Source: Candidatus Poribacteria bacterium (lineage in GTDB: Bacteria; Poribacteria; WGA-4E; WGA-3G). Taken from it: a DNA stretch of 64,000 nt. Below the pieces are notes generated by a model. The model did not search any database and had not been told where the DNA came from. It saw only the letters and a list, made by a program, of their open reading frames with translations. A program made the translations under genes and the position numbers. Where the stretch lies: contig CBDBFU010000023.1 of NCBI GenBank assembly GCA_965205025.1, forward strand, positions 1 through 64,000, in the 5' to 3' direction. Shown here piece after piece: positions 60,928 to 64,000 of the stretch (the first letter of the stretch is position 1; each line of letters opens with the position of its first letter).

Positions 60928-62298
60928 TTAAAAAAATGTAAGATACGGTTTGCCTTCTATCTCGCGGAGCAACAATAGTGCAAGTTCTCTTCCATGATAG
61001 TCTCCCCACATAGATGCCTCTCCACATGGTATTTTTCTATCTTCTGGAACATAGTCCCACCCGTTGGGTCTGTGATATACTGAATGAAGAAGTAAACCTT
61101 GATGTGTTTCTGAGGCTGATAAATAGGGTTCATCAAAGAGAGTGTTTGCTACTGTTAAACCAGCTTGGTAGTATTTGGAACTTGATTCTTCTTCACCATG
61201 TTTTGAAAGGAAGTTCCCATATCTAATTAACCCTTGTGCCGCGATTGCTGCAGCAGAACTATCAACGGGTTCATAATCATTGTATGGTTCGGACGGAATT
61301 GATAGGTAATCTCCTAATTCAACCAGACCCGGAGCCCCTGTATCCCAGTAAGGTATTCCATCCTGTGCTGTGTTCTCAATGAAGAAATCTGCAGTTGCTT
61401 CAACTGCTTTCCTCATATGGGATGTCACTTCGAACTTCCCACCAAAAGAATCAAGGTCATCATCAGACAATGTATCAAAAAACTCAAGCTGCTCTGCATA
61501 ACCTGTTATAATCCATGCTAAACCACGAGTCCAGGTAGAAAATGGGGAATAACCTTGTTGTGTACTGGGACATCGGTAATTTCCATCATTAGTATTGAAG
61601 ATAGATTCATGAACTACCCGTCCCCGAATATCAAAAGCATCACGACCTTCACCGTAGTAAACATTATACTTAGCAGTTGTTTGAGAATGTTGGATTAACC
61701 GTTCCAATAAGTTTATTGCTACATCACCTTCACCCATAAGGACAGCCCCAAGTGTATGTCCTATAGCTAATACACGTAATGAACGTATGGTATCTGAGAA
61801 TAAAGAATGTGGTCCGTTGAAAGAAGCAATATAACCTGCTCCATCCTTAATCTCTGTCCATCGACTCGCTTGTACGGCTGCTGAAGATTTCAAAGCAATT
61901 TCATAAAAGTGCATTTCATTTTCATCAGTTGGGATAACACCTTCCCGCATAAGTCGACAAAGATTACCATAAGTGGAGACGTTATTAAACCCGTGATCAT
62001 GTACGCCAATATGTGTAACATGTGGATGCATTTTTTCAATAGTGTTCCGTCTTCCAATTTCTAAGAATTGTTCATCCCCAGTTGCATCATATTGAAGAAT
62101 AGCAGATCCAAATTGAAATCCTTGCGTCCATTCTGTCCATCCTCTGGTTGTGTATGTACCAGCAACTGTAAAAACAGGTGTGCCATTTTCTGGTAGCCAA
62201 GTGTCTTCAATTGACAATATTTTTTCACCTGAAAACTCAAAAAACCTGTCTATTTTGGTTTTCAGATCATGTATCTTTAATGAATTGTTTATCTTCAT
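60928..62298 (-). CDS. GH88-like unsaturated glucuronyl hydrolase
   Basis: WT.GF, HDHGF, QGY...STWTRG.AW, PYWD, DSSAAAIAA and WGDY motifs. Confidence 0.85.
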   Translation of the reverse strand: MKINNSLKIHDLKTKIDRFFEFSGEKILSIEDTWLPENGTPVFTVAGTYTTRGWTEWTQGFQFGSAILQYDATGDEQFLEIGRRNTIEKMHPHVTHIGVHDHGFNNVSTYGNLCRLMREGVIPTDENEMHFYEIALKSSAAVQASRWTEIKDGAGYIASFNGPHSLFSDTIRSLRVLAIGHTLGAVLMGEGDVAINLLERLIQHSQTTAKYNVYYGEGRDAFDIRGRVVHESIFNTNDGNYRCPSTQQGYSPFSTWTRGLAWIITGYAEQLEFFDTLSDDDLDSFGGKFEVTSHMRKAVEATADFFIENTAQDGIPYWDTGAPGLVELGDYLSIPSEPYNDYEPVDSSAAAIAAQGLIRYGNFLSKHGEEESSSKYYQAGLTVANTLFDEPYLSASETHQGLLLHSVYHRPNGWDYVPEDRKIPCGEASMWGDYHGRELALLLLREIEGKPYLTFF

Positions 62299-62334: not shown

Positions 62335-62829
62335 TCAAGATGTTCCATACTGTTCACATATTACTTCAATCAAGTTAGTTGTTGATTTACCTGGAACATT
62401 AATACCTACAACTACCTTACCACCATTTTCTTCAACAATTTCTCTTTCTACAAGCTGCTCTAATTTGTAATCTCCACCTTTTACATGAATGTTTGGTTTG
62501 AGATCTGAAAGTAATTCGATTGGTGTCAATTCAGGAAATATCACAACATAATCAACACATGCTAATCCTGCTAACATCTCTGCTCGTTCATCCTCAGGAA
62601 CAAGTGGACGATTCTCTCCTTTGAGTTGTCTAACAGAATCATCACTGTTAACAGCGACAACAAGAAGATCCCCCATCTTCCTTGCAGCCTGAAGATAACG
62701 TAAATGACCTAAGTGTAATACATCAAAACAACCATTTGTTGTTACGACAATTCTGCCTTGTTTTCTAAGGTCATTTAACTGCAATGATAGTTCAGATCGT
62801 GTATATATTTTCTTCTGTGTCATTATCAA
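62335..62829 (-). CDS. rfaE2: D-glycero-beta-D-manno-heptose 1-phosphate adenylyltransferase
   Basis: TNGCFDVLHLGH, NSDDSV..LKG..RP, KGGDY and STT motifs. Confidence 0.92.
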   Translation of the reverse strand: MIMTQKKIYTRSELSLQLNDLRKQGRIVVTTNGCFDVLHLGHLRYLQAARKMGDLLVVAVNSDDSVRQLKGENRPLVPEDERAEMLAGLACVDYVVIFPELTPIELLSDLKPNIHVKGGDYKLEQLVEREIVEENGGKVVVGINVPGKSTTNLIEVICEQYGTS

Positions 62830-62893
62830 CTTTACTTTATAAGTACTTTTTAAAAATTGCTGTCAAAATTGTTGATGTTATATTCATACATTA

Positions 62894-62922
62894 TTGCATA
62901 TTCACTATACTTTTGCTATAAT
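62894..62922 (+). promoter_or_regulatory. Sigma70-type promoter for the EF-Tu-like gene
   Basis: TTGCAT-17-TATAAT with extended -10 TG. Confidence 0.55.
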
Positions 62923-62977: not shown

Positions 62978-64000
62978 ATGAATAAGAAAAAGACATCCAT
63001 TCATCAATCGTTACCTATATGCATGCTTGGTGCTAATGGACATGGTAAGACTACGTTAACAACTGGTATGGAAAGAGTCGTTGAAAAAATTGGAACAATT
63101 CGTTCAGATACCAATACTGATTTTGCTGATCAGTTGCCAAATCACCACCAGATATGTGAAGGAGTTGGTTTTACTTTTCGATCTATTGACTATGAAACAA
63201 GCGGAAAACACTATACACAGATAGATTGTAATACACATCAGGATATAATAAAATTATTAGTTAGTGGTACTCTGGATATTCAAGGTGCAATATGGGTAGT
63301 CGATGCAGATGAAGGTGTAACGCCAGAATCTGAAGAACTGGTTTATATTGCCAATCGTGTTAAAGTATCCAATATTGTATCATTCTTAAATATTCATAAT
63401 ACCGATGACAGTGAGTTAGTAAATATCTGTCAACATGAAATGAGAGAATTACTCACTGAATGTGGATGGAATGAGAATAATTCACCAATATTAGTTGGTG
63501 ATGCACATAATACATTAAACTATAAAACTGTAAATTTGGGTTCAGACCAATGGAAACCTATCGTTGATACCATTTCTGCATTAAACAGCATAATGCCGGA
63601 TCCAATTGATAAATCACATCTTCATCTGGTTTTACCTATACATGAAATTGTGAAGGAAAGTAAAGAGACTGTGACATTTTCAGGTGAATTAATACAAGGT
63701 CATCTTTCTGTAGGTCAATCCATTGATATTGTTGGCAAAGGAGACAGGGTTAAAACAAAATGTTTAAATATTAAAGAAGATGAAATAACAGTAGAATCTG
63801 AACCAGACTGGTTATCTGTTGGACAGGTTGTATGTTCCCCAAAGACTATAAAAGCACATACAGAATTTATAGCTATTGTTTATTTACTAAGCCAGGAAGA
63901 AAGCGGAACACATATCCCTATAATTCAAAATGATAAGCTTGATATCCACCTATGGGGTATAGATGTTCATGCACGTGTTCAACTTCCACCAGAACTATCA
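62978..64000 (+). CDS. Highly divergent EF-Tu paralogue, runs off the window end
   Basis: 341 stop-free codons translated by hand; colinear with EF-Tu (GKTTLT, YET..HY..DC..H.D, GAI.VV.A..G, E.RELL, HTEF...VYLLS.EE.G.H.P). Confidence 0.85.
   Translation, partial: MNKKKTSIHQSLPICMLGANGHGKTTLTTGMERVVEKIGTIRSDTNTDFADQLPNHHQICEGVGFTFRSIDYETSGKHYTQIDCNTHQDIIKLLVSGTLDIQGAIWVVDADEGVTPESEELVYIANRVKVSNIVSFLNIHNTDDSELVNICQHEMRELLTECGWNENNSPILVGDAHNTLNYKTVNLGSDQWKPIVDTISALNSIMPDPIDKSHLHLVLPIHEIVKESKETVTFSGELIQGHLSVGQSIDIVGKGDRVKTKCLNIKEDEITVESEPDWLSVGQVVCSPKTIKAHTEFIAIVYLLSQEESGTHIPIIQNDKLDIHLWGIDVHARVQLPPELS

Follow-up and report, generated by a model that had tools for sequence, protein, structure and literature searches.

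The window analysed here, 64,000 nucleotides of poribacterial DNA (contig C23:1-64000, from an assembly of 5.66 Mb in 33 contigs, 95.5% complete), ends within a gene related to the one encoding elongation factor Tu (EF-Tu). The open reading frame (ORF) starts with an ATG at position 62978 of the forward strand and leaves the window at 64000, after 341 codons, with its 3' end open; for this reason it is missing from the default ORF list. When the full gene is retrieved from the contig, it closes at position 64135 and encodes a protein of 385 amino acids (P0001), without stops or frameshifts. Its neighbours are a cytidylyltransferase-like gene, divergent from it, and a hisA-like gene, convergent with it, and tuf/str-operon context is absent. 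The single canonical tuf gene of the genome (P0002, 718.5 bits) is found at C9:130800-131996, with an EF-G-like match 2 kb upstream. BLASTP aligns residues 5-384 of P0001, hereafter the paralogue, to residues 3-397 of this EF-Tu, at 29% identity (E 2e-51). The first-pass annotation of the window had described an intact ORF, colinear with EF-Tu domains I-III and lying outside a tuf or ribosomal context, and had asked for a separate tuf; all this is borne out by the contig and the genome.

By the Pfam cut-off (26.5 bits for GTP_EFTU, PF00009) the paralogue is a member of the translational GTPase superfamily, as its residues 13-184 match this model with 69.1 bits. The GTP_EFTU_D3 match is weak, and GTP_EFTU_D2 (PF03144), carried by the canonical matches, is not reported at E<=1. 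The best NCBIfam models are those of EF-Tu (TIGR00485, NF000766, NF009372, NF009373), but scores of 167.8-173.4 bits fail cut-offs of 449-522. When the genome was searched with TIGR00485, the paralogue reached 189.5 bits and tuf 718.5, against a cut-off of 522.4. The SelB (TIGR00475, 44.4 bits versus 242) and CysN (TIGR02034, 23.7 bits versus 336) cut-offs are failed as well, the EF-1alpha model scores far below the EF-Tu models, and neither NCBIfam nor Pfam holds a dedicated model matching the paralogue family. Failing the EF-Tu equivalog cut-off, and lacking five EF-Tu-defining sequence features, the paralogue should lose the annotation as elongation factor Tu, and this database name is probably a mis-annotation for family members in general.

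Members of the family fall into three types (A, B and C, described below), and the surveyed genomes into families f1 to f11. The window copy is of type A, and its features, read from the alignment unless otherwise stated, are the following.

62978..64000, forward strand: coding sequence of the paralogue, type A, codons 1-341 inside the window (ORF, Pfam GTP_EFTU, tuf alignment, dN/dS)
63029..63052, forward strand: G1/P-loop GANGHGKT (residues 18-25); Walker A kept, Asp and His of GHVDHGKT lost
63095..63187, forward strand: switch-I equivalent (residues 40-70), EGVGFTF at 61-67; an ordered beta hairpin is predicted in place of a mobile helix
63224..63238, forward strand: G3 DCNTH (residues 83-87); Walker-B Asp kept, DxxG glycine replaced
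63389..63400, forward strand: G4 NIHN (residues 138-141) for NKxD; Asn alone kept, Lys absent in 37/37 f1 sequences
63404..63463, forward strand: helix-D region (residues 143-162), among the best-retained EF-Tu-like stretches; helix predicted at 145-161
63497..63508, forward strand: G5 GDAH (residues 174-177) for GSAL; the Asp (Asp175) is new and nearly invariant
63731..63811, forward strand: remodelled domain II, with the signature VGKGDR[IV]KTxC ... EPxW and a deletion of 14 alignment columns

Each motif string quoted by the first-pass annotation is present in the 385-residue protein and in the alignment. Its account of G1 needs correction in one respect: GANGHGKT is there, but the Walker A consensus GxxxxGK[ST] is still satisfied, and only the Asp (and the His) has been lost. 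The consensus occurs in 50/50 type A sequences. The switch-I Thr of RGITI has a role in EF-Tu, the functions of such residues being partly textbook knowledge. A different residue is aligned to it in the paralogue; in most type A sequences a Thr or Ser is found 1-2 residues away, and type B reads IPI. None of the 50 type A and 13 type B sequences has the glycine of DxxG; the Asp is kept, and so is the His in most. The P-loop Asp is retained in 1/50 type A sequences, and in none of the 12 type B sequences covering the region; in EF-Tu it binds a monovalent cation, according to Atkinson 2015 (PMC4342817).

A deletion of 14 alignment columns affects domain II in 50/50 type A sequences; the window copy reads ...KEDEITVESEPDW where EF-Tu has the EMF...G.LLRG segment. 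The replacement of the EMFRK...GENVG.LLRG stretch by something shorter had been correctly noticed at first pass. Some f3 members (L058, L049, L054, L056, L057, L059, L051) carry insertions exactly at the deletion site. In the protein of L058 (genome G029, 442 amino acids) the insertion is of low complexity, about 50 residues long and enriched in Pro, Ser and Gly. The site seems to tolerate any loop length.

With 11 canonical EF-Tu sequences as reference, 227 columns show conservation of 90% or more; of these, 134 persist in type B and 85 (37%) in type A. In type A the best-kept regions are the P-loop (10/14) and the stretch at positions 136-165 of the genome's own EF-Tu, which includes helix D (10/18); the worst-kept are switch I (1/7), domain II and two segments of domain III. 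Invariant columns in an alignment of 20 type A sequences are 63, and include the P-loop Gly and Lys, Asp83 and Asn138. Because of these invariants, the prefix "pseudo", used below for the protein as a GTPase, holds for the switching and specificity motifs, and not for nucleotide binding itself. Other invariants are new to the family: VGKGxRxxT and E..W in domain II, W326 and KK370-371 in domain III, Y182 and P194-I195 after G5.

Conservation and stepwise loss of GTPase motifs in Poribacteria

A word-indexed search of 5.8 billion proteins returned 277 matches. The 120 listed are 370-488 amino acids long (most 385-390) and 56-100% identical, and the named ones among them all belong to Candidatus Poribacteria, under the headings "hypothetical protein", "GTP-binding protein" or "elongation factor Tu". 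In a survey of the phylum, P0001 was searched against 176 genomes, and matches with E <= 1e-60 were taken to be at paralogue level. Such matches have been identified in 153 of the 159 genomes of families f1-f4, which make up one order and include the window genome. In the 17 genomes of families f5-f11, matches were either lacking or no better than those expected of canonical tuf (E 1e-41 to 8e-51). Genomes G115, G030 and G063 gave canonical-level matches alone; G030 and G063 were searched again with the profile A1 (see below).

Frames are intact at 50/50 type A loci fetched, and encode 385-442 amino acids. The ratio of nonsynonymous to synonymous substitution rates (dN/dS) was estimated by the Nei-Gojobori method on the 91 pairs formed by 14 sequences, and the 16 pairs with dS < 1.5 gave values of 0.071-0.148. 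By domain (7 pairs), dN/dS is 0.09-0.16 in the G domain, 0.04-0.10 in domain II and 0.03-0.16 in domain III. A copy in decay would lack orthologues, or show ratios near 1; what has been found is 50/50 loci intact, and ratios of 0.07-0.15. Paralogue and canonical tuf are both present in the five genomes checked (5/5). The five EF-Tu sequences are 99, 94, 89, 84 and 82% identical to that of the window genome, the paralogues of the same genomes 89, 65, 58, 50 and 43% identical to the window copy, and the latter values being far lower, the paralogue must evolve several-fold faster than tuf. It evolves fast, yet is under clear purifying selection.

The profile A1, derived from 20 diverse type A members, was searched against 1.84 billion representative sequences. 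Just two clusters, P0122 (651 bits) and P0123 (361 bits), both poribacterial, score above the level of ordinary EF-Tu; the next match, P0124 (264 bits), resembles ordinary EF-Tu, and has canonical G motifs. The failed EF-Tu, SelB and CysN cut-offs, and a profile search in which both clusters above ordinary EF-Tu are poribacterial, place the paralogue outside the translational GTPase families described by these models.

Type B corresponds to the P0123 group, which counts 14 clusters among those listed, P0123 included, 54-84% identical to P0123. Type B proteins are 43-44% identical to canonical EF-Tu, and the named ones all come from Poribacteria. A type B query was run on five of the 17 genomes that lie outside the order, and two of the five, G007 and G008 (families f6 and f7), host the gene. 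Both frames examined are intact, and G007 also has a canonical tuf. Type B keeps GH.GHGKT, NK[IV]D (12/13) and GSA (13/13). The P-loop Asp is gone, IPI replaces the Thr region of switch I, the DxxG Gly is found in 0/13 sequences, and domain II carries an acidic insertion.

Type A keeps GxxxxGK[ST] (50/50), the Asp of G3 and the Asn of G4; the DxxG Gly is found in 0/50 sequences, and G5 now reads G-D-A. The G4 motif varies by family:

f4: NKAD or NEVD
f3: NK[AS]E, 7/8
f2: NQ[TS]E, 3/3
f1: Lys in 0/37, at least 12 variants; NIHN in the window copy

Type C has been identified in three genomes of genus g17 (family f4), which at first seemed to lack the paralogue. The frames are intact in 3/3 genomes and dN/dS is 0.13-0.18. 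At the P-loop stands G[DE]RSYDLC, and GK[ST] is missing; the Asn of G4 is replaced, as is, in one genome, the Asp of G3. The loci are the following.

L107:1429-2667, forward strand: type C gene, genome G059
L106:1468-2670, forward strand: type C gene, genome G061
L108: type C gene, genome G060

In an IQ-TREE tree of 67 rows, including 20 of the 50 type A sequences, 13 of type B and 23 long-branched representative rows, types A and B lie together on one side of a branch supported at 99 by the Shimodaira-Hasegawa-like approximate likelihood ratio test (SH-aLRT), with stems of 0.93 (A) and 0.30 (B). In a later tree, which included type C and left out the 23 long-branched rows, type C nests inside type A, beside the other f4 genus (SH-aLRT 98, stem 1.66). 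Neither tree settles where the clade attaches among EF-Tu sequences, either as sister to poribacterial tuf or elsewhere, and for this reason no claim is made about the donor, or the date, of the duplication.

Types A, B and C are a single-origin paralogue of EF-Tu, restricted to Poribacteria and selected alongside normal tuf. As read from the aligned motifs, the first losses, represented by type B, involved the P-loop Asp, the DxxG Gly and, it seems, the switch-I Thr. The guanine-recognition motifs G4 and G5 went later, in type A, along with 14 residues of what in domain II of EF-Tu is part of the aminoacyl-tRNA pocket; part of this pocket is dismantled in type C as well. The last loss, on the same reading, is that of the P-loop itself, in the one genus hosting type C. 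Since the three stages survive in living genomes, the order in which a pseudo-GTPase evolved can be directly read, and types B, A and C provide a natural three-stage series of GTPase decay, in which the fold is re-used throughout. Loss of switch and catalytic motifs is accompanied by purifying selection (dN/dS 0.07-0.18), the combination by which a pseudo-GTPase is recognized.

Predicted structure and gene context

The AlphaFold2 model of the paralogue, obtained with the A1 alignment, has a predicted local distance difference test score (pLDDT) of 89.4 and a predicted template modelling score of 0.86. The equivalents of switches I and II are ordered (block pLDDT 78-94; 78-92 for switch I, residues 41-70), and the former is predicted as two strands, at 55-60 and 63-74. 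The top 50 Foldseek matches are all EF-Tu, with template modelling (TM) scores of 0.82-0.89. In VIA-align comparisons the model superimposes on GDP-form EF-Tu (1tui, 1efc, 6mij, 1d8t) with Z 42-45 and a root-mean-square deviation (rmsd) of 2.1-2.5 A over about 370 residues, on EF-Tu:EF-Ts complexes with Z about 34 and rmsd 3.6-4.1 A, and on the GTP-analogue form 2c78 with Z 30.0 and rmsd 7.7 A. The canonical EF-Tu of the same genome was modelled as a control by the same method, on an alignment of 24 rows (pLDDT 82.9). In the control, residues 43-66 (switch I) and 86-98 (switch II) have pLDDT < 50, and the model is closed, with TM scores of 0.90-0.92 to GTP forms (1exm, 1eft, 1ttt, 1ob2) and 0.48-0.55 to GDP forms. 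Given that the canonical protein folds closed, the method has no open default, and the open prediction is specific to the paralogue. The models thus show the three-domain EF-Tu fold as kept in the paralogue, and predict an open arrangement of the GDP type.

The surroundings of the gene have been analyzed by clustering the ORFs around the 50 type A loci, and by running Pfam on the neighbours in f2, f3, f4, type B and type C loci. The common order in f1 is a 456-residue ORF, the cytidylyltransferase-like gene, the paralogue, a hisA-like gene and an ABC permease gene. All the neighbours seen in the loci examined are metabolic or transport genes. The elements upstream of the paralogue in the window are the following.

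60928-62298, reverse strand: ORF of 456 amino acids, without Pfam matches at E<=1e-5
62335-62829, reverse strand: cytidylyltransferase-like gene (neighbour ORF)
62883..62921, forward strand: candidate promoter TTCATA-17-TATACT, followed by TGCTATAAT, spotted by eye at about 62913-62921 (one 9/12 site, weak)

The two genes are the upstream neighbours of the paralogue at 18/50 loci. The first-pass annotation had credited the paralogue with a promoter of its own. The 148-base-pair spacer is AT-rich and contains one 9/12 promoter-like site (about 62883-62911), which makes the suggestion plausible; it cannot be demonstrated, as the upstream region holds 6 promoter-like sites and shuffled sequences 8.5 +/- 2.7, so that no enrichment is seen. 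An M20 peptidase gene close to the paralogue in one f3 and one type B locus was considered as a shared neighbour, and dropped because the two peptidases are unrelated. Type C genes are flanked by genes for an enolase-superfamily protein (MR_MLE_C) and a Cof-type HAD hydrolase.

Additional members of the EF-Tu family, and a gene of the translation apparatus, were met in the survey. In genome G000 two matches, C20:47311-48381 and C20:50244-51029, both on the reverse strand (L004 and L005; 119.7 and 60.8 bits with the EF-Tu model), are separated by 3 kb, belong to open frames of 651 and 686 amino acids, and may be of the SelB, CysN or EF-G type. A canonical-level tuf match in genome G017 (L064, C394:4013-5173) holds one TAA near a contig end, and could be an assembly edge or a broken copy. 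At L066:854-1441 (reverse strand) an frr-like gene downstream of tsf features a Gly/Arg/Lys-rich insertion, ...GSDGGSGGRRSKGRGGDKKGSRG..., within ribosome-recycling-factor-like sequence.

Interpretation and comparison with known systems

The paralogue is, on balance, probably a lineage-specific EF-Tu duplicate of Poribacteria, maintained by selection, in which the working parts of the GTPase have been lost and what persists is a non-switching module with the shape of EF-Tu. A preserved but repurposed EF-Tu fold had been surmised at first pass, and conservation, dN/dS, motif loss and the structure model all support it. Normal EF-Tu activity is very unlikely, as the paralogue is missing NKxD, SAL, the P-loop Asp, the Gly of DxxG, apparently the Thr of switch I, and a portion of the domain II pocket. 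Judging from the residues lost, the protein must do something new, having given up EF-Tu switching and tRNA carriage. It would neither cycle between GTP and GDP shapes nor carry aminoacyl-tRNA, and, if the model is correct, would be a static module, held in an open arrangement of the GDP type. The remodelled domain II (VGKGDRxKTxC...EPxW), which is the most constrained, is the probable seat of its function, together with domain III. At least type C appears to manage without nucleotide binding, which the invariant P-loop would permit in type A.

What the module binds can be tentatively suggested by analogy. Helix D is the face of EF-Tu that contacts bL12 and EF-Ts. Retained EF-Tu surfaces, as the helix-D face, may dock the paralogue on the translation apparatus, where it could, without hydrolysis, occupy or regulate ribosomes that are idle or stressed, in parallel with open EF-Tu(GDP) on hibernating ribosomes. 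This possibility is favoured because helix D is comparatively well kept and open EF-Tu(GDP) is known on hibernating ribosomes, to which it binds through Balon, bL12's C-terminal domain and 16S h5 (PMC10901736); the bL12 contact of EF-Tu is also given in that paper. A bolder proposal, and a doubtful one, is that the family is the first of bacterial pseudo-translational GTPases, an off-shape EF-Tu duplicate that, freed from the nucleotide cycle, would have become a dedicated occupant or regulator of the ribosomal factor site. If true, idle ribosomes might be kept silent or protected, for example in slow-growing poribacterial symbionts.

Several observations weigh against this picture of an inert module docked on ribosomes. 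The P-loop Gly and Lys, Asp83 and Asn138 are invariant in type A, and nucleotide binding may still matter. The contrast between open and closed forms was predicted by AlphaFold2, and the alignments behind it are shallow (20 and 24 rows). No neighbour is common to families f1, f2, f3, f4 or type B, and the gene context thus does not indicate a partner. The argument for ribosome contact is the partial retention of helix D, which may have been kept for folding; domain II, which in EF-Tu contacts 16S h5, is the most remodelled part. PF10116, PF18854 and PF03465, which we take to be the Pfam families covering Balon, have 0 matches each in the 95.5%-complete genome. EF-Ts is encoded by one gene; its predicted complex with the paralogue, modelled without controls, scored 0.01 against a mark of 0.32, a value that speaks neither in favour of binding nor against it.

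Alternatively, a nucleotide-dependent switch may have been retained, with base specificity changed towards ATP or any NTP. In YchF/OLA1, of the Obg family, a non-canonical G4 motif accompanies ATP use. GxxxxGK[ST] in 50/50 type A sequences, the invariant Asp83 and Asn138, the new, near-invariant Asp175 in the G5 loop and purifying selection on the G domain (dN/dS 0.09-0.16) are all compatible with such a switch. It is nonetheless unlikely. The DxxG Gly, required to sense the gamma-phosphate, occurs in none of the 50 type A or 13 type B sequences, and the switch-I Thr is not conserved; the free drift of G4 in f1 (12 or more variants) fits relaxation rather than a new specificity; type C is under purifying selection despite the loss of the P-loop, and AlphaFold2 gives one confident conformation. 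We regard as similarly unlikely that the paralogue serves a non-translational complex as a regulatory or structural subunit, much as CysN, itself EF-Tu-like, regulates CysD, and binds its partner via the remodelled domain II. Domain II is indeed the most constrained, and has acquired invariant motifs of its own; the segments of domains II and III with which canonical EF-Tu contacts tRNA are altered, and all the neighbours seen are metabolic or transport genes. Yet none of these neighbours is shared by f1, f2, f3, f4 or type B, the f1 gene is on its own, with a divergent gene on one side and a convergent gene on the other, and the CysN model gives 23.7 bits.

A role as decoy, or sponge, for agents that target EF-Tu (toxins using EF-Tu as cofactor, elfamycin-type antibiotics, phage factors) is quite improbable. 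It would account for a fold and an overall shape kept while activity was lost, and open-form EF-Tu bound to Tse6, CdiA-CT or GE2270A is among the closest structural matches. In contrast, the gene is single-copy, vertically inherited across the order and stable in position in f1, and only 85/227 of the positions conserved in the canonical protein are kept, so that EF-Tu surfaces are poorly mimicked. Neighbours of the defence type are absent; PADLOC reported one marginal match (PDC-M02B, E 1.7e-4, 18.7 bits, 70 residues), which was disregarded. A working elongation factor, condition-specific or antibiotic-resistant as EF-Tu3 or actEF-Tu, has even less probability. The protein is full-length and colinear with EF-Tu, its best family matches are EF-Tu models, and actEF-Tu, as a distinct functional subfamily, sets a precedent (Atkinson 2015). 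However, 168-173 bits are to be compared with cut-offs of 449-522, the P-loop Asp, DxxG Gly, NKxD, SAL and apparently the switch-I Thr have disappeared together with 14 columns of domain II, the Pfam D2 domain is not detected, and the predicted shape is the one that does not bind aminoacyl-tRNA. Lastly, the probability that the gene is a decaying duplicate, i.e. a pseudogene in the making, or an annotation artefact, is negligible. Strong divergence (29% identity to tuf) and the database name "hypothetical protein" might suggest it, but frames are intact at 50 type A, 3/3 type C and both type B loci, dN/dS is 0.07-0.18, and 63 columns are invariant in the 20-sequence alignment. These last two alternatives, working elongation factor and pseudogene, are effectively excluded.

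The paralogue is seen, accordingly with the preferred explanation, as an undescribed, lineage-specific pseudo-GTPase offshoot of EF-Tu, much more derived than actEF-Tu. Literature searches returned no description of the family; the per-taxon supplements of Atkinson 2015 could bear on the classification, and a sponge holobiont proteome preprint mentions EF-Tu in generic terms. A search for sequencing runs listed two of DNA type, both from a single study, and none of RNA. EF-Tu is among the most conserved and best-studied proteins, and the family, on this interpretation, shows that bacteria can re-use its fold as a non-switching protein. The gene is near-universal in a major group of uncultured Poribacteria, under database names that are inconsistent across family members.

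The paralogue shares with canonical EF-Tu (TIGR00485) its three colinear domains and its fold (TM 0.82-0.89 when compared with solved structures), and retains Walker A, the Asp of Walker B, the G4 Asn, the helix-D region and parts of domain III. It differs in the loss of the Lys and Asp of NKxD and of the Ser of SAL, in its 29% identity, and in the open shape predicted, canonical EF-Tu being predicted closed. The 2015 survey of translational GTPases (PMC4342817) names actEF-Tu as the sole clearly distinct EF-Tu-like subfamily in bacteria; actEF-Tu, or EF-Tu3 of Streptomyces, is described there as a condition-specific, antibiotic-resistant, working elongation factor. Both actEF-Tu and the poribacterial family are lineage-restricted EF-Tu paralogues that escaped gene conversion with tuf. 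The latter lacks catalytic and tRNA-pocket elements, a distinction drawn from descriptions and not from a comparison of sequences.

Yeast Ski7, archaeal aSelBL and giant-virus GTPases are non-hydrolysing or divergent members of the EF1 family (PMC4509514, PMC3037878, PMC6582330). As in the paralogue, the translational GTPase fold was kept after duplication, and canonical delivery was lost or changed. A feature search of the atlas placed giant-virus EF1-family clusters nearest to the paralogue (0.96). Unlike the paralogue, these proteins are eukaryotic, archaeal or viral, and belong to the EF1A and SelB branches, and no kinship is claimed; Ski7, as its abstract states, still binds GTP, in an active-like conformation.

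The open shape is also that of EF-Tu(GDP) on Balon-carrying ribosomes (Z 42.7 and rmsd 2.4 A between the paralogue model and chain 8rdw_H), where the factor site is held via bL12 and 16S h5, without GTP hydrolysis (PMC10901736). In contrast to the paralogue, the protein in those ribosomes is ordinary EF-Tu, and needs Balon. CysN and SelB are, as the paralogue would be, EF-Tu relatives recruited to special tasks. No cysD neighbour resides beside the paralogue, as would be expected of a CysN, and the C-terminal mRNA-binding extension of SelB has no counterpart in a protein which ends, at 385 amino acids, right after domain III.

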